Virus record (IMG/VR): IMGVR_UViG_646311924_000007
Coordinates: 32,001-96,000 of that record
Source: a virus
Taxonomy: Duplodnaviria; Heunggongvirae; Uroviricota; Caudoviricetes
Length of the DNA: 64,000 bases
Strand: one strand, 5' to 3'
Below, piece by piece: positions 46,346-56,748 of the stretch (position 1 is its first letter; the number at the start of each line of letters is the position of its first letter). A program made the translations under genes and the position numbers. The notes under the pieces are model-generated. The model had not been told where the DNA came from. It saw only the letters and a list, made by a program, of their open reading frames with translations, and did no database searches.

Positions 46346-46852
46346 TTGAGTATTTTCAATAAACACGCACACCAGGAACGTCCGTATATCGTCATAGTCG
46401 ATATTGATGGGACGATATCAGAGGCAACGGAAGACAGGCTGCATTTGCTTCCACCACCTGGCAAAGGTGCATTAACAGAGCACTGGAACGAGTTTAACCT
46501 TGCCTGTGACACTGATGCTCCCATCACTCCAGTTATTGATATGGTGCGCCAGTTATTTAACGTTTACACGGTCTGGTTTGTAACCGGGCGCTGTGAGATA
46601 GCCAGGGATAAAACACGAGCCTGGTTGCGTAAGCACGTAACAAACGGGGCTGAGCCTTTGCTATCTATGCGTCCTGCCACCGATGACAGAAATGACGGCC
46701 CAGCAAAGATTGCTCTCCTTAAGAAAATTGGTCTAAGTAAAATCGCGTTCGCGCTGGAAGATAAGATTGAAGTGGCGCGTGTTTTCAGGAGTCACGGCGT
46801 ACTTACGTTAATGGTCAGGGAGTATGAAAACGCGCTTCTCCATCAACAGTAA
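46346..46852 (+). CDS. HAD-superfamily phosphatase-like protein
   Basis: Motif I VIVDIDGTIS near N-terminus; 168 aa. Confidence 0.5.
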   Translation: MSIFNKHAHQERPYIVIVDIDGTISEATEDRLHLLPPPGKGALTEHWNEFNLACDTDAPITPVIDMVRQLFNVYTVWFVTGRCEIARDKTRAWLRKHVTNGAEPLLSMRPATDDRNDGPAKIALLKKIGLSKIAFALEDKIEVARVFRSHGVLTLMVREYENALLHQQ

Positions 46853-46868
46853 TTGCTCTAATAAATCT
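46852..46868 (+). promoter_or_regulatory. C1 operator-like site (ATTGCTCTAATAAATCT)
   Basis: 16/17 to consensus; abuts stop of HAD-like gene, upstream of early-gene block. Confidence 0.6.
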
Positions 46869-46950
46869 TGATTTTTAAAACAGAGAAAGTGAAAATAAAA
46901 ACATGCCGCAAGGCGCGGCATGTATCCAATCAATCACAGGAGCTGAAAAT

Positions 46951-47037
46951 ATGAACACGGCATTCAAAATCATTATGGCCGCGATCTATTTCTGGCTGTT
47001 CTCTATCACTTTTGGCGGCATCGTCGCGCATGGGTAA
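46951..47037 (+). CDS. small hydrophobic peptide (28 aa)
   Basis: MNTAFKIIMAAIYFWLFSITFGGIVAHG with AGGAG 8 nt upstream; below ORF-track size cutoff. Confidence 0.3.
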   Translation: MNTAFKIIMAAIYFWLFSITFGGIVAHG

Positions 47038-47046
47038 GGGGGATGC

Positions 47047-47775
47047 ATGAAAGGCGAAGTGAAAGAGCGCGGCATGATTTTCAACGATGAGATGGTCCGA
47101 GCCATCCTCGAAGGAAGGAAAACGCAGACGCGGCGGATAATGAAAAATCAGCCTGCGGAAGTTGGTCCAGAAGCACCAGTGATGGTTAGGGAAATTGGTG
47201 CAGGTTTTCAGTGGTACGGGGCTGATGGTGTAAGCAGTGTTTTCAATTGCCCCTTTGGTATCGTCGGCGATCGAATTTGGGTTCGTGAAACATGGGCGAT
47301 ATTAGGCAATGAAGATGGTTGCAGTGTGGACTGGAACGACAACCTTTGTCGTGGCGATGAGAAGAACGCAGCAAGGATTTATCGGGCCAGTTGTGAGCAA
47401 AAGCCTGGTGATTACGGTTTATGGTCGATACCCGATGATGCCGACTGGAAACCTCACACTGTGAATGAAAAGTTTGATGGTGGGTGGCGTCCATCAATTC
47501 ACATGCCGCGATGGGCATCACGCATCCTGTTGGAAATTACCAACGTGCGCGTTGAGCGGTTGAACAATATCAGCGAATGCGATGCAAGGGATGAGGGCGT
47601 TCCGCCTGCTGGAAGTTTGCTTCCTGATCACCCGGGAACATTCCTTACTCCCAAGGGGGATTTCGCAATGGCCAAGGTTGCGTTCCAGCGCCTGTGGGAA
47701 TCCATCTATGGTGAAGAAAGCTGGAACGCTAATCCCTTGGTGTGGGTAATCGAGTTTAAGCGCATTCAGGAATAA
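47047..47775 (+). CDS. ASCH/PUA-like domain protein
   Basis: MIFNDEMVRAILEGRKTQTRR near N-terminus typical of ASCH-type phage proteins; alternative start at 47074. Confidence 0.45.
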   Translation: MKGEVKERGMIFNDEMVRAILEGRKTQTRRIMKNQPAEVGPEAPVMVREIGAGFQWYGADGVSSVFNCPFGIVGDRIWVRETWAILGNEDGCSVDWNDNLCRGDEKNAARIYRASCEQKPGDYGLWSIPDDADWKPHTVNEKFDGGWRPSIHMPRWASRILLEITNVRVERLNNISECDARDEGVPPAGSLLPDHPGTFLTPKGDFAMAKVAFQRLWESIYGEESWNANPLVWVIEFKRIQE

Positions 47776-49279: not shown

Positions 49280-49968
49280 AATTTTCCAAATTTTCTGAGT
49301 TGGTGAATCGTATTTTGTCCAACAACCACAGCCATCGTCGCGATATGGATGTAACGATCGTTGTTCATTCGCCTGGCAGCATTGGTTCAACACCTTCAGT
49401 TGAGGTTCAGTCAATTCACGCTGGTTTTGATTGGGATTCCGGGAAAGTGCTTATTTTCCCATCACAGCCACTGACCACGCTAACACCAGAACAGATTACT
49501 GATATCACTGATAGTGTGCGCAAAGGTCAGTCTTGGCACGCATATCAGGAATACAAGAAGCATCAAGAGCAGTTGGAAAAATTGTCGATTGAACTGGATG
49601 CCGCAAAACAGCGCATTGCAGAGCTGGATGGTAATCGCACGGCGCTGGCAGTGGAGAATGCCTCAATGAAGCTGTTTATCAGGGGCTGTTGCTACGTGTT
49701 TGATGGCCAGCAGGATGAAATATCTGATGCGTATATCTGCGCAACAGACGGAGGGATGCCGCAAATTCCAGCCACCGACGCTTTCCTGGCTGAAGCTCGG
49801 GCGCAGGGGGTAGAGATGATGCGCGAACACCCATCAATCAAACTTTGCTCTTTGACGCACATATGTGATGAGTTAGCCGCCCAGCTTCGAAAAGGAGAGC
49901 TGCATATGATGTTTGACGCTGGCATTCACATCAAAGGAGAAGAGCATGGAAATAAAACCAGAAGATGA
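49276..49968 (+). CDS. early protein, paralog B (Ead/Ea22-like?)
   Basis: 230 aa; IAELDGNRTALAVENASMK and ATDAFLAEARAQG parallel paralog A. Confidence 0.45.
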   Translation: MKFSKFSELVNRILSNNHSHRRDMDVTIVVHSPGSIGSTPSVEVQSIHAGFDWDSGKVLIFPSQPLTTLTPEQITDITDSVRKGQSWHAYQEYKKHQEQLEKLSIELDAAKQRIAELDGNRTALAVENASMKLFIRGCCYVFDGQQDEISDAYICATDGGMPQIPATDAFLAEARAQGVEMMREHPSIKLCSLTHICDELAAQLRKGELHMMFDAGIHIKGEEHGNKTRR

Positions 49969-50305
49969 GTTAAGTAATATTGTTTTATTTCCGGTAAAAG
50001 AGGATGACCCACGTAATCAGGTTAATTTTCTTTATGAACCATCGGAAAGACCATATTGCCATCATGCCTCTGTCCGGGTTGATGAAAAAGAGCGTCAGGT
50101 CCGCTGTAAAATCTGCGGTGCAGTTGTGGAGCCATTTGACTGGATGCTCTCTGTTGCGAAAAGAGAAACCAGGCTGGCAGATGATGTAAAACTATTGCGC
50201 CAGGAGGAACAGGAAAGGCGAAAAAATATAGAAAAGCTAATTCAGATTGAGCGTAACGCGAAAGCGCGGATACGCAGAGCGACAAAATCCAGAACTGAAT
50301 ATTAA
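49946..50305 (+). CDS. zinc-ribbon protein (hypothetical)
   Basis: Start ATG 49946 after AAAGGAGAAG; CHH...CKICG cysteine/histidine cluster. Confidence 0.4.
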   Translation: MEIKPEDELSNIVLFPVKEDDPRNQVNFLYEPSERPYCHHASVRVDEKERQVRCKICGAVVEPFDWMLSVAKRETRLADDVKLLRQEEQERRKNIEKLIQIERNAKARIRRATKSRTEY

Positions 50306-52728: not shown

Positions 52729-53103
52729 ATGATGACACTAAAACATTTTCTTGACCGCCCATTATGGGCGGCAGCCGCAGGCTATGACTTTAATTATATG
52801 GATTGCATGTCTTATACTGCCAATGCATACGACCATTCGTTCAGCCTGCTGTTTAATTCTTTAAGAATATTGCCGGAAACAGAAGTTGGAGAGCTTCATT
52901 TATGGATATTGGGCTTTATCGCGGCTGGAGTTGGTATTGCCGTATGGCCTTTTATTTTCTGGCTGGTGGCTGTTGTAGTGTGGTTTAAGTGCAAGACGTA
53001 CCGGAAAAAGTATTTCTTAGGTGATGGAATGACTGATATTGCCAAAATGAACATTGAAAAATGGACTAAGGAATGTGAAAAGAAATGGCGCAAAAAGAAA
53101 TGA
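52729..53103 (+). CDS. membrane protein (hypothetical)
   Basis: Two predicted TM segments (LWILGFIAAGVGIAVWPFIFWLVAVVVWF). Confidence 0.4.
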   Translation: MMTLKHFLDRPLWAAAAGYDFNYMDCMSYTANAYDHSFSLLFNSLRILPETEVGELHLWILGFIAAGVGIAVWPFIFWLVAVVVWFKCKTYRKKYFLGDGMTDIAKMNIEKWTKECEKKWRKKK

Positions 53104-53774
53104 CTACTCTAACGACAGCATACTTACAGCAATTGGTATTTTTTGCAGGCGAGGCTACTTGTCATCCTGACGCAAACTATTTATTGGAATTTGAGAGGTT
53201 AGCGTCACCCGGTATCGTTCTGGAACTGGCCCAACAGGTGCTGGCCTTGAGACAAAAAGAGCAACATGAAAGTAATACGTGTAGATTGAATTTTGAGCAG
53301 TGGCTGGAACAGCAACGCGGAAAAATCGATGTGGACTGTGGTTGTGTGTCCACTGAAACATTCATGCACTGGCTGCGGGTAGCTTACGAGGCTGGCAACT
53401 ATCCGGATATTCCGGATATTCCGGATAGTTCGGTGCCAGCGCCAGGAAAGGGCGTCACAGGTGAGCGTATCCGCATTAAGCCGCATGTTTATCGCGAACT
53501 GGTTAACCGTCTCCACGATACAGCGATCAAGTGTGCAGGCACCCAGCAATTACGAGAAAGAATTAGCCGTGTTTTGGGCGACGTTATTACGCCAGACCAT
53601 CATAAACAAGCCGAGAAAAGTGACCTGGAAAGGTGTCACCTTGAGGCGGCATTAAACATTAAGCCGGGGCATACGCTTGGCATTATCGATGCTCTGTTGG
53701 TTCATAAGATGGCCAGGGCTTTATTGCCGCTGGTGGCTGAAAAGCATGAGGCGGACCATGCCAACGAAAGCTGA
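53085..53774 (+). CDS. hypothetical early protein
   Basis: 229-aa ORF; contains perfect tandem 9-bp repeat GATATTCCG x2 (53407-53424). Confidence 0.4.
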   Translation: MAQKEMTTLTTAYLQQLVFFAGEATCHPDANYLLEFERLASPGIVLELAQQVLALRQKEQHESNTCRLNFEQWLEQQRGKIDVDCGCVSTETFMHWLRVAYEAGNYPDIPDIPDSSVPAPGKGVTGERIRIKPHVYRELVNRLHDTAIKCAGTQQLRERISRVLGDVITPDHHKQAEKSDLERCHLEAALNIKPGHTLGIIDALLVHKMARALLPLVAEKHEADHANES

Positions 53775-54042
53775 GTTACAGGCGCGCATAGATATTCTTG
53801 AAAAAGAGAATGCGAGTCTAAAAGGAATGCTGGCGCGGGCGGAAAGGGAATTATCAGGCAAATTATTGCCAGAAGAGCTGCCACCAGCAGATATACCTGA
53901 TCGAGTGTCCTGGTGGATGAAGTATTTCCGTGCACCGTGGGAGGCGTTTTGGTGCTACGACCATCGCAGATGGTGTGATGAGCTTGATAGCAGTTTCCCC
54001 TATTTTGCGGAAGGGAACTCTTGCCCTGAATGTAGGAGTTAA
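53758..54042 (+). CDS. Cys-rich small protein, tandem paralog 1
   Basis: Start taken at ATG 53758 (MPTKAEL); C-terminal PWEAFWCYDHRRWCDELDSSFPYFAEGNSCPECR. Confidence 0.45.
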   Translation: MPTKAELQARIDILEKENASLKGMLARAERELSGKLLPEELPPADIPDRVSWWMKYFRAPWEAFWCYDHRRWCDELDSSFPYFAEGNSCPECRS

Positions 54043-54347
54043 TGATGACCGGCGAGCTTTATTTTAAAATGGCACGGGAGCGGCGTGTGCATCTGGATCG
54101 GATATTTCATCTCCAGAAGAGAGTAGAAGAACTGGAACGTCGTCTGAACTGTTATCCTGTTGATATGGTGTCTGCAATACCGCCGATTCCAATAGAAATG
54201 CAGATCCGCCTATGGATGGAAGAATATGGAATGCCGTGGGAGATATTTTTCTGCTTCGACCATAAACAGTGGGTAGATGAGCTGGATAATAGTTTCCCAT
54301 ATTTCACAGAGAACACATGCCCAGTATGCAGGAAGAACGGAATATGA
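54042..54347 (+). CDS. Cys-rich small protein, tandem paralog 2
   Basis: C-terminal PWEIFFCFDHKQWVDELDNSFPYFTENTCPVCR parallels paralog 1. Confidence 0.45.
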   Translation: MMTGELYFKMARERRVHLDRIFHLQKRVEELERRLNCYPVDMVSAIPPIPIEMQIRLWMEEYGMPWEIFFCFDHKQWVDELDNSFPYFTENTCPVCRKNGI

Positions 54348-54868
54348 CAAAATTTGGAAAGCTGGAAGCTCATTTGCTAACTCGTAACTACCGCCATGAT
54401 ATACACCCATATAGACAGTGGATCGATGAAAGTGAAGGAGTAGTTACATTCCCTCTATACAGGTTTGATGGGATGTTGGCTGGGTATCAGACATATAGAC
54501 CAGGTGCTCCTAAGCAGCATAGCAATCCGAAGATGGCCCGGTATTTCACGCGATCACATGGCAGACAGTTACTTTGGGGAACCTATCTTCCTTTAAAAGA
54601 TGGCCCAATATGGATAACTGAGTCTATTTTTAAGAGCGCAGCTGTACACAACGCGGGCGGCAATTCGTGGGCGCTGTTAGGTTCGACTTTCTCCGCAGGA
54701 TTACGCCGTCAACTTGCGATGCTGCCGTATGACTTTCGTGTAATAGGTGACAATGATGCGGCTGGTGAATTACTTGTGAAGTCTTTCGGAAAAGGTTTTG
54801 TGGCCCCGGATCTTGACGAGCTACAACCACATGAAGTGTCTCATTTGATTTTTAGCCATAGCCAATAA
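54344..54868 (+). CDS. Toprim-like domain protein
   Basis: Start taken at ATG 54344; conserved Glu (ITESIF) and DxD (IGDNDAAG) with Toprim-like spacing. Confidence 0.4.
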   Translation: MTKFGKLEAHLLTRNYRHDIHPYRQWIDESEGVVTFPLYRFDGMLAGYQTYRPGAPKQHSNPKMARYFTRSHGRQLLWGTYLPLKDGPIWITESIFKSAAVHNAGGNSWALLGSTFSAGLRRQLAMLPYDFRVIGDNDAAGELLVKSFGKGFVAPDLDELQPHEVSHLIFSHSQ

Positions 54869-54928
54869 GCATCTCTCCCCTTTGAGGCCACAATTAGTGG
54901 CCTTAAACAATGTGTTTTCTACCTCGAT

Positions 54929-55144
54929 TTAGCCTCTATTATCGTTTTGCATTTCTCTAATCCGGTTCAGAACTACTTCATGCTGGGCTTGGATAGCGGC
55001 TTTTTCGTTTTCAAGTCGGGCAATAGACATCTCTAATTCTTTGCTGTACCAGGCGAGTTGGGCCAGGTTCATCCGGTTGTGGTCGAGAGTTGGAGACACT
55101 TCGACGCGATCCCTTTCTTCCTGCTTTAATGAGAAGAGATTCAT
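54929..55144 (-). CDS. small coiled-coil protein (hypothetical)
   Basis: 71-aa ORF, convergent with early block. Confidence 0.35.
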   Translation of the reverse strand: MNLFSLKQEERDRVEVSPTLDHNRMNLAQLAWYSKELEMSIARLENEKAAIQAQHEVVLNRIREMQNDNRG

Positions 55145-55174
55145 CTCATCCCTTGAGGAAAATTCAGCAACAAT

Positions 55175-55510
55175 TTATTGTTGATGATCCGGTCGCTGCG
55201 GCATCCTCGCCAGTATAAATGGCGGTTCTTTTGAAAACATGAATGTCGGTTCAGACCGTGTTTTTACCCAGCTTGCCTGCTGTCTTTCGGCAAGTTCACA
55301 GGCTTCATCATAGTTATTTGCCAAACCAAGCACGGATGGACGGTCCCACGCGCCACCATTCAGACAATAAACAACAATTTTCCCGTCATGTTCTGTAACC
55401 CCATAGGGATGGTCCCACCAGGCGTCCAGCTGAGCTTTAGAGCGTTTCTCGTTAGGAGTGCAGTCAAAATTTTTGGGCAATACAGGATCGAGAGGAATGC
55501 GATTAGGCAT
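55175..55510 (-). CDS. hypothetical protein
   Basis: 111-aa ORF upstream of the 71-aa gene on minus strand. Confidence 0.4.
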   Translation of the reverse strand: MPNRIPLDPVLPKNFDCTPNEKRSKAQLDAWWDHPYGVTEHDGKIVVYCLNGGAWDRPSVLGLANNYDEACELAERQQASWVKTRSEPTFMFSKEPPFILARMPQRPDHQQ

Positions 55511-56146: not shown

Positions 56147-56368
56147 ATGCAATCCATTAACTTCCGTACCGCGCGTGGCAACCTTTCTGAAGTGCTCAAC
56201 AATGTTGAAGCCGGGGAAGAGGTTGAAATCACCCGCAGAGGCCGTGAGCCAGCAGTAATTGTCAGCAAGGCTACTTTCGAAGCCTACAAAAAAGCGGCGC
56301 TGGATGCTGAATTTGCATCCCTGTTTGACACCCTGGACTCCACCAACAAGGAACTGGTTAACCGATAA
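56147..56368 (+). CDS. phd: Phd antitoxin
   Basis: 73 aa [39 protein letters not shown]..., P1 Phd as recalled; palindromic GTGTACAC/GAGTACAC sites at 56117-56140 upstream. Confidence 0.9.
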
Positions 56369-56748
56369 TGAGGCATATATCACCGGAAGAACTTATTGCG
56401 CTTCATGATGCGAATATAAACCGCTACGGCGGCCTGCCGGGAATGTCAGATCCGGGTAGGGCAGAGGCCATTATCGGGAGAGTTCAGGCCAGAGTTGCCT
56501 ACGAAGAGATCACCGACCTTTTCGAAGTCTCCGCCACCTACCTGGTGGCTACAGCGAGAGGGCATATATTCAATGATGCCAATAAGCGTACCGCGCTAAA
56601 CAGTGCGCTGTTATTTCTACGCCGTAACGGGGTGCAGGTATTTGATTCACCTGAACTGGCAGACCTTACCGTAGGGGCTGCGACCGGAGAGATATCTGTA
56701 TCTTCTGTCGCCGACACGTTACGTAGATTGTATGGTTCCGCGGAGTAG
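56368..56748 (+). CDS. doc: Doc toxin (Fic-family kinase)
   Basis: 126 aa, overlaps phd stop; Fic motif region [15 protein letters not shown]. Confidence 0.9.

Follow-up and report, generated by a model that had tools for sequence, protein, structure and literature searches.

Two old subfamilies of a rare phage protein family with a likely zinc-binding domain form a recurrent gene pair in a P1-like phage-plasmid

Several described protein types can be compared with the two small phage genes analyzed here. The lambda protein Ea8.5 has been described as having a fused homeodomain/zinc-finger fold. DksA/TraR-type proteins, small and acidic, contain both a coiled coil and a zinc site of four ligands and occur as accessory proteins on plasmids and lambdoid phages. 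The CHC2 motif of DnaG has the spacing C-x2-H-x17-C-x2-C. In bZIP-type zippers, the pattern of Leu at d positions and Asn at an a position favors parallel dimers. The genomic setting has also been described, since the pmgT-to-humD stretch is one of eight hypervariable regions among the 77 P1-like phage-plasmids that were compared (PMC9603915).

The window, the whole 64,000-nucleotide stretch of viral DNA analyzed here, was identified by sequence comparison as an E. coli P1-like phage-plasmid. The region around the two genes, ORF A and ORF B, showed 93 to 96% identity to P1-like phages (P1 variants, RCS47, SJ46, and D6) and 100% identity to E. coli P1-like plasmids such as NZ_CP027590.1 and pO103-1 (CP101300.1). 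Downstream of both genes, humD, phd, doc, pdcA, and pdcB follow in the same order as in P1. This gene order and the identity to the plasmids place ORF A and ORF B in the pmgT-to-humD stretch, and their location corresponds to the known "variable region 8" of P1 (PMC9603915). In a CRISPRi screen in P1, the genes pmgT, pmgU, and pmgV, which occupy the same position, scored as nonessential (PMC10695390).

The two ORFs are tightly arranged (Table 1). ORF A begins within the last 17 nt of the PmgT/PmgU-like gene upstream, and ORF A overlaps ORF B by 1 nt (TAATG). The two genes are read as co-transcribed and are probably translationally coupled. Shine-Dalgarno sites, coupled starts, and intact orthologues mark both as real genes that are probably translated. 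The exact sequence of ORF A was present on at least 1,000 contigs, and the same count of at least 1,000 applied to ORF B. By BLASTP, the C-terminal domains of the two proteins shared 28 of 54 identities (52%; E = 4e-22), which in terms of alignment statistics is far beyond chance, and the N-terminal halves showed only about 20% identity. The shared motif, PWEAFWCYDHRRWCDELDSSFPYFAEGNSCPECRS in ORF A and PWEIFFCFDHKQWVDELDNSFPYFTENTCPVCRK in ORF B, differs by a one-residue indel. The initial annotation had described two adjacent small proteins with a common C-terminal Cys/His motif, and this description is confirmed.

Table 1. Positions of the features in the window
Feature	Positions	Strand	Basis or remark
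C1 repressor operator corresponding to OpmgT/Op88 of P1	46852..46868	+	1 mismatch against the C1 operator consensus
Shine-Dalgarno site of ORF A, GAGG	53748..53751		6 nt before the start
ORF A, 94 aa, A-type member of PHROG 3797	53758..54042	+	Stop codon included; ORF list and sequence
ORF A residues 4-33, predicted N-terminal leucine-zipper helix	53767..53856	+	AF2 helix, pLDDT above 90; heptad conservation
ORF A residues 41-94, conserved C-terminal domain with putative zinc ligands C66/H69/C89/C92	53878..54039	+	Invariant columns; AF2
T4 run in ORF A	53947..53950	+	Loss of one T gives frameshifted '...PWEAFGATTIADGVM...' variants in other P1-like plasmids
Shine-Dalgarno site of ORF B, AGGAG	54034..54038		Spacing of 3 or 6 nt to the possible start codons at 54042 and 54045
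ORF B, 101 aa (100 aa if the start is 54045), B-type member of PHROG 3797	54042..54347	+	Stop codon included
ORF B residues 46-98, conserved C-terminal domain, C-x2-H ... C-x2-C	54177..54335	+	BLASTP against ORF A; family alignments
Stand-alone TOPRIM-domain protein, 174 aa	54344..54868	+	phrog_849 'DNA primase', E = 1.3e-53
Terminator-like hairpin, 11-bp stem	54881..54907	+	Consensus scan; weak T-tail
Genuine phd-doc pair	56147..56748
Phd	56147..56368

The operon that contains the pair was examined from its control region to its end. Twelve C1 operator-like sites were found in the window against 0.34 expected, and the segment at 46820 to 47060 (about 240 bp) showed 98% identity to the annotated OpmgT/Op88 operator and PpmgT promoter region of P1. 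The operator listed in Table 1 overlaps predicted PpmgT promoters, and the accessory operon that includes ORF A and ORF B is read as starting there. This agrees with the placement of the pair in an early block by the initial annotation. From this operator to position 54868, every plausible gene lies on the plus strand and the genes are tightly packed. This gene layout puts ORF A and ORF B close to the 3' end of a C1-repressed pmgT accessory operon. The hairpin directly after the TOPRIM gene, a candidate terminator only in view of its weak T-tail, is probably the operon end. Judging from the operator, the operon would be silent under C1 and expressed once repression is lifted, in early lytic growth. 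The same operon also encodes Ead/Ea22-like, DUF4752, and DUF551 proteins, which are of the small-cassette type typical of lambdoid 'ea' and 'nin' regions. Two P1 proteins were considered as homologues of the pair and rejected: PmgU matches the C terminus of the gene upstream of ORF A, and PmgV, though encoded at the same position, is a coiled-coil protein with no relation to the pair.

To describe the domain anatomy, we used AF2 models of monomers with the family alignment as input and the conservation in 45 diverse family members. The pLDDT was 90.8 for full-length ORF A and 89.2 for the domain alone. In the model, the long helix of residues 4 to 33 is followed by a Pro-rich linker, two short helices, and a hairpin carrying C66 and H69. 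Next come an irregular stretch (W..ELD..FPY) and the last helix, which starts at C89-P-x-C92. In the heptads of the ORF A zipper, the d positions are L7, L14, L21, and A28 and the a positions are I11, N18, L25, and L32. Among 19 A-type sequences, Leu was conserved at d positions 7, 14, and 21 in 100%, 68%, and 100%, respectively; positions 11, 25, and 32 held V, I, or L, and Asn occupied position 18 in 12 of the 19. In A-type proteins, the heptad pattern of this N-terminal helix is the classic one of a leucine zipper.

The signature C-x2-[H/C]-x(16-20)-C-x(1-2)-C was fully conserved in the 45 members, down to about 25 to 30% identity, and takes the form C-x2-H-x18/19-C-x2-C in ORF A and ORF B. 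In ORF A numbering, C66, C89, and C92 were each Cys in 45/45 members and P81 was also invariant, while position 69 was His in 42 and Cys in 3. The homologue of the P22-like phage SE10 also has C-x2-C in place of C-x2-H. His and Cys are exchanged at this one position while the other three Cys residues are fixed, as would be expected of a metal ligand. The conservation of Cys and His residues claimed by the initial annotation therefore holds for C66, H69, C89, and C92, but the Cys of 'WC-DELD' in ORF A lies outside the signature and is not conserved in the family. The invariance of the four positions and their placement on the hairpin and helix of the AF2 model make a zinc-binding fold likely in the C-terminal domains of ORF A and ORF B, as had been proposed. 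The predicted secondary structure suggests a treble-clef-like layout.

Next, we compared the two genes with those of other elements. Among five pairs, identities were 46 to 74% between A-type proteins and 56 to 69% between B-type proteins, and only 34 to 47% between A and B, whether taken from the same element or not. These higher A-A and B-B identities indicate that the duplication predates the lineages compared. Orthologues of ORF B in four other elements showed 56 to 69% identity. Single-copy genes of other phages were 63 to 77% identical to ORF B in the domain and 54 to 67% in the N terminus, compared with 54% and about 20% for ORF A. The N terminus of ORF A showed 60 to 78% identity to Erwinia- and Pantoea-type relatives, and the coding DNA of the A and B domains was about 64% identical. 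The alignments thus separate ORF A and ORF B into two old subfamilies, A-type and B-type, each closer to genes of other phages than to its neighbor. The recent duplication suggested by the initial annotation is contradicted by these values and by the recurrence of the A-then-B order in at least five diverged elements. Such pairs were found in a Citrobacter phage-plasmid, where the genes overlap directly after a HumD-like gene; at IMG/VR locus L096, which resembles the Citrobacter type; on an 884-bp metagenomic contig (proteins P0037 and P0009); on a 15-kb contig; and on a 59-kb P1-related contig with an opposite-strand lxr-like gene between A and B. This recurrence reads as a pair kept or moved as a unit.

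Both types were also found alone. Of the 153 PLSDB plasmids in which the family was found, only 13 had B at an identity of at least 99%, and a solo A was the commonest state in P1-like plasmids. Among the best 80 IMG/VR loci by likeness to ORF A, 13 held the pair. The frequency of solo copies makes an obligate A-B complex unlikely. Chimeras were also detected, namely P0013 and P0014 (A sequence as far as PWE, followed by B sequence), P0002 (an A N terminus joined to B), and P0034. From these sequences, the A and B paralogues recombine, and CCGTGGGAG, common to positions 53935 to 53943 and 54234 to 54242, is one obvious crossover point. In addition, ORF A was often inactivated by loss of a T from its T4 run, giving '...AFGATTIADGVM...' variants. 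The slip site was read from the sequence, and the variant proteins P0026, P0041, P0043, P0049, and P0053 match the +1 frame ORF at 53930 to 54067. The abundance of frameshifted and chimeric variants points to weak or conditional selection.

Both proteins matched the PHROG 3797 profile, with E values of 6e-58 for ORF A (profile positions 1 to 94 of 94) and 1.6e-36 for ORF B. ORF A had 45 homologue clusters, and a profile of the C-terminal domain returned only 43 clusters from 1.84 billion representative proteins at E ≤ 1e-3, nearly all of them with proteins of 65 to 125 aa. The family occurred in 17 of 50,697 sequenced phage records. Its carriers were the P1-like phages RCS47 and D6, Klebsiella phage LASTA, P22-like Salmonella phages, a Proteus Lederbergvirus, and a Vibrio phage. 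A profile search of species-representative genomes matched 2 of 185,579, a Citrobacter and a Providencia. Intact orthologues were found in phages and plasmids of Escherichia, Salmonella, Citrobacter, Klebsiella, Erwinia, Pantoea, Proteus, Providencia, and Vibrio, so the profile searches supplied the conserved homologues expected under the initial annotation. The 174-aa annotation in LASTA probably has an over-extended start.

The genomic positions of the homologues were diverse. The SE10 gene sits between ninF and ninG, the Brookers homologue after replication genes, and an Erwinia prophage homologue between Ead/Ea22 and xis-int; in LASTA-like phages, the family gene is upstream of the integrase. 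One metagenomic element carries a B-type gene beside a Lar-like gene and directly upstream of a Phd/Fic pair. Neighbor clustering of 36 sequences (35 loci and the window) gave no consistent partner gene, only antisense artifacts and lineage-specific synteny. The PmgU-like gene upstream of ORF A was rejected as a conserved partner, as the link is confined to close P1 relatives. No informative domain fusions were found in the family.

For ORF A and ORF B, Pfam and NCBIfam returned nothing above sub-threshold coiled-coil noise, and a Pfam scan of the 45 members gave only sub-threshold coiled-coil and bZIP noise; together with PADLOC, these scans revealed no enzyme-like or known domain in either protein or the family. 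A sequence-profile search of the PDB gave a single chance match (3jyg; E = 0.32), Foldseek found no meaningful PDB match, and the BFVD fold search returned family members only. No PADLOC-DB family matched at E ≤ 0.1 when ORF A, ORF B, the TOPRIM protein, and three proteins encoded upstream were compared, and no known anti-defense homologue of ORF A or ORF B was found. The literature searched by the PHROG 3797 identifier, the P1 variable region, and anti-defense work contained nothing on this family. On the profile evidence, ORF A and ORF B are members of a small, rare, phage-specific family of uncharacterized function.

The small size, zipper, putative zinc knob with its conserved aromatic and acidic residues, net acidity, and lack of any signature of catalysis or nucleic-acid binding, together with the setting in repressor-controlled early accessory regions of phages of several unrelated temperate types, the patchy distribution, and the decay, best support a reading of these proteins as protein-binding modulators. 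Each protein would consist of a zipper helix of about 30 residues, a proline-rich linker, and an aromatic/acidic domain of about 50 residues held by one zinc ion through Cys-x2-His ... Cys-x2-Cys. Once C1 repression is lifted, A and B would be made early in lytic growth, and the zipper may form parallel dimers (A2, B2, or A-B), each presenting a pair of zinc knobs. The knobs would bind a protein of the host or of a competing element stoichiometrically. Under this model, A and B would be nonessential, swappable cargo for host modulation or counter-defense, and neither enzymes nor DNA binders. The host-takeover or anti-defense role raised by the initial annotation is compatible with the early accessory gene setting. 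We propose a stoichiometric protein-binding modulator acting early in lytic growth, for host takeover or counter-defense, only tentatively and at somewhat less than even confidence, and any specific target is much less probable than this general mechanism. The recurrent A-then-B pairing suggests heterodimerization or two related targets. A stronger version, in which A and B would form a heteromeric two-component zinc module with an undescribed small fold that neutralizes a host immunity or housekeeping protein at lytic onset, would define a new effector family for counter-defense or host takeover, common to P1-like phage-plasmids and to phages of the lambdoid, P22-like, and LASTA-like types, but we consider this version unlikely.

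Other explanations were weighed against the protein-binding modulator. The combination of a leucine zipper with a zinc module could instead indicate bZIP-like dimers that act as sequence-specific nucleic-acid-binding regulators of phage or host transcription, with the zinc domains touching DNA or RNA. The A-type zippers have the Leu at d and the Asn at one a position that characterize bZIP proteins, the zipper of the B-type proteins is immediately preceded by a short basic stretch that is conserved (YFKMARERR), weak bZIP_1/bZIP_2 Pfam matches occurred in 5 to 6 of the 45 members, and family genes lie in early operons beside regulators in some prophages. However, those matches were far below the Pfam cut-offs, and A-type proteins have three residues ahead of the zipper (MPT in ORF A) where a bZIP protein has a basic region of about 16 residues. 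Moreover, 42 of the 45 members were net acidic (mean charge, -4.1; zinc domain alone, -3.9), which argues against nucleic-acid binding, and Pfam gave no match to an HTH or known DNA-binding zinc-finger family in ORF A, ORF B, or the 45 members. A regulatory role of this kind is therefore rather doubtful. The neighboring TOPRIM gene raises another idea, that A and B serve in trans as its zinc-binding subunits in the style of CHC2 in DnaG. The spacing of the zinc signature resembles the CHC2 motif, the ORF B stop overlaps the TOPRIM start (ATGA), and the TOPRIM protein covers only the middle of the primase profile phrog_849 (positions 143 to 333 of 435), thus lacking an N-terminal module. On the other side, Pfam zf-CHC2 matched none of the 45 members even at E ≤ 1, and the prediction shows mostly helices and a single hairpin, not a zinc ribbon. 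TOPRIM adjoins the pair in this plasmid lineage only; it does not do so in four other elements (L018, L019, L020, and L022) or at solo-member loci. Relatives of the TOPRIM protein were present in 490 phage records, including T5-like phages, and PhiR41_1, T5-like phages, and Kagunavirus carry the same protein but no member of the family. By these comparisons, the TOPRIM gene is an operon neighbor of the pair and no conserved partner, and the subunit idea is highly improbable.

The database name of ORF A leads to a further possibility, since NCBI/GenBank records call it 'antitoxin PHD'. Two small, overlapping, co-transcribed genes would fit a toxin-antitoxin or addiction module, as would the B-type gene upstream of the Phd/Fic pair mentioned above. 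However, ORF A showed no similarity by BLASTP to the genuine Phd of the window, encoded 2 kb downstream (E = 0.62), and Pfam PF02604 (Phd/YefM) had no match at E ≤ 1 in ORF A, ORF B, or the 45 members. By these comparisons, the GenBank name is wrong. The genes that follow ORF A encode its paralogue and the TOPRIM protein, not a Doc/Fic or YoeB-type toxin. In addition, the two genes are paralogous, which is not the case in known type II pairs; A or B is alone in many elements; and a promoter repressed in the plasmid-prophage state gives the wrong timing for addiction. Such a module has almost no probability. Timing also bears on the idea that A and B protect the lysogen, either by keeping other phages out or by defending it against them. 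The hypervariable accessory region is a common place for defense cargo (PMC9603915) and the distribution of the family is patchy, which would suit this role, but PADLOC gave no match, the C1 operator should keep the operon silent in the lysogen, and lambdoid relatives carry the gene in nin or ea regions that are likewise repressed in lysogens. Protection of the lysogen is thus quite improbable.

If the protein-binding modulator reading is right, a compact zinc-domain family is swapped among the early accessory regions of temperate phages of Enterobacterales and Vibrio, in some cases as a conserved module of two genes in A-then-B order. The family would then be a further candidate among small early phage proteins with host targets. 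The analysis also corrects the 'antitoxin PHD' misannotation, which is present on many near-identical copies in E. coli and Salmonella records. Because the family is rare, dispensable, and often decayed, its likely impact is limited.

Finally, we compared the pair with the described systems. Ea8.5 of lambda, like A and B, is an accessory early protein; it comes from a temperate coliphage, is about 93 aa long, contains Cys/His residues and, at its C-terminal end, a CPxC knuckle, and is encoded in an 'ea'-type region as a nonessential protein of no known function; it differs in having no leucine zipper. Homology to Ea8.5 was rejected, as hhalign gave a probability of 3.3% over 12 aligned columns that covered the CPxC knuckle only. 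Treble-clef zinc fingers may be comparable, as the predicted secondary structure of A and B would put ligands 1 and 2 on a beta-hairpin knuckle and ligands 3 and 4 at the first helix turn, but A and B have an aromatic/acidic insert of 16 to 20 residues (W..ELD..FPY) with no known counterpart, and there was no structural match. With the DnaG-type CHC2 finger, A and B share the ligand order, a similar spacing, and, in the window, an adjacent TOPRIM gene. This is a resemblance of pattern only, because A and B have no profile match and another predicted fold, and the TOPRIM gene is not a constant neighbor. DksA/TraR-type proteins have a helical hairpin in place of the single N-terminal helix of A and B, whose zinc site is C-terminal and includes a His ligand, and Pfam PF01258 had no match in ORF A, ORF B, or the 45 members. 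A and B are nevertheless also small, acidic accessory proteins of mobile elements that combine a coiled coil with a putative four-ligand zinc site. The PHROG 3797 profile fits both ORFs end to end or nearly so and represents their own family; its entry carries no functional or structural annotation, does not split A-type from B-type, and has no record of the recurrent A-then-B pairing found here.

The gene whose start overlaps the stop codon of ORF B, the second of the two paralogous small genes, encodes a short stand-alone protein with a TOPRIM domain. This protein matched the primase family phrog_849 only in the middle of the profile (positions 143-333 of 435) and carries neither a zinc-binding nor a polymerase domain. 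Searches of Pfam (E ≤ 1) and of PDB sequences with the 174-aa protein gave no matches. Relatives, encoded by similarly short genes, were found in 490 phage records; among these are T5-like phages, where the product is called "DNA primase-like", as well as Kagunavirus and jumbo Erwinia phages. The cluster at 90% identity that contains ORF B also holds 174-aa TOPRIM proteins (representative P0110, 185 aa), probably because an overlapping 183-aa reading frame begins at 54317, within ORF B. This joint cluster is an artefact that counts of members should take into account.

Features in the accessory operon and across the window
Feature	Position	Strand	Match
C1 operator sites, examples of 12	8393, 10058, 25011, 29310, 46852, 61311		P1 C1 consensus, ≤3 mismatches
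Unannotated 28-codon ORF, MNTAFKIIMAAIYFWLFSITFGGIVAHG	46951-47037	+
Small protein, 130 aa, same operon as ORF A and ORF B	49913-50305	+	PF08271, weak
PmgT/PmgU-like hybrid gene, upstream of ORF A	53085-53774	+	P1 PmgU, C-terminal half
Stand-alone TOPRIM-domain protein, 174 aa	54344-54868	+	phrog_849
lxr-like ("LexA regulated function") gene, two ORFs: 55510-55175 (111 aa) and 55144-54929 (71 aa)	54929-55510	-

On the other side of the pair, in one database cluster (P0058, 285 aa), the PmgT/PmgU-like hybrid protein is fused in frame to ORF A, with the junction "...LVAEK|ENASLK...", and this fusion is probably a deletion variant. The NCBI product name "antitoxin PHD" has spread over many copies of ORF A (e.g., CP101300.1 NMK63_28235) and was also given to its homologues in Erwinia and Pantoea. 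We rejected this name for ORF A (53758-54042), as the protein is unrelated to Phd/YefM.

Elsewhere in the operon, the 130-aa protein matched PF08271, a TFIIB-type zinc ribbon, weakly and under the threshold (E = 2e-4), so ORF A and ORF B are not the only putative zinc-binding mini-proteins of the accessory array. The 28-codon ORF lies downstream of the C1 operator/PpmgT promoters and ahead of the operon's first large gene. It is preceded by a Shine-Dalgarno sequence (AGGAG) 8 nt upstream, and its strongly hydrophobic product could be either a leader or a small membrane peptide. The stretch is identical to P1 DNA, with zero mismatches, and no CDS is annotated there in P1.

The lxr-like gene appears to be split into two ORFs, which are named "DNA-binding protein" and "hypothetical protein" in GenBank. 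Both parts are covered by a single 190-aa protein in a related contig (L020, 4548-5120), and lxr is one 573-nt gene in P1. The C1 operator consensus of P1, with up to three mismatches, gave 12 matches in the window, compared with 0.34 expected by chance; these predicted sites fit a complete P1-type immunity circuit spread over the window.
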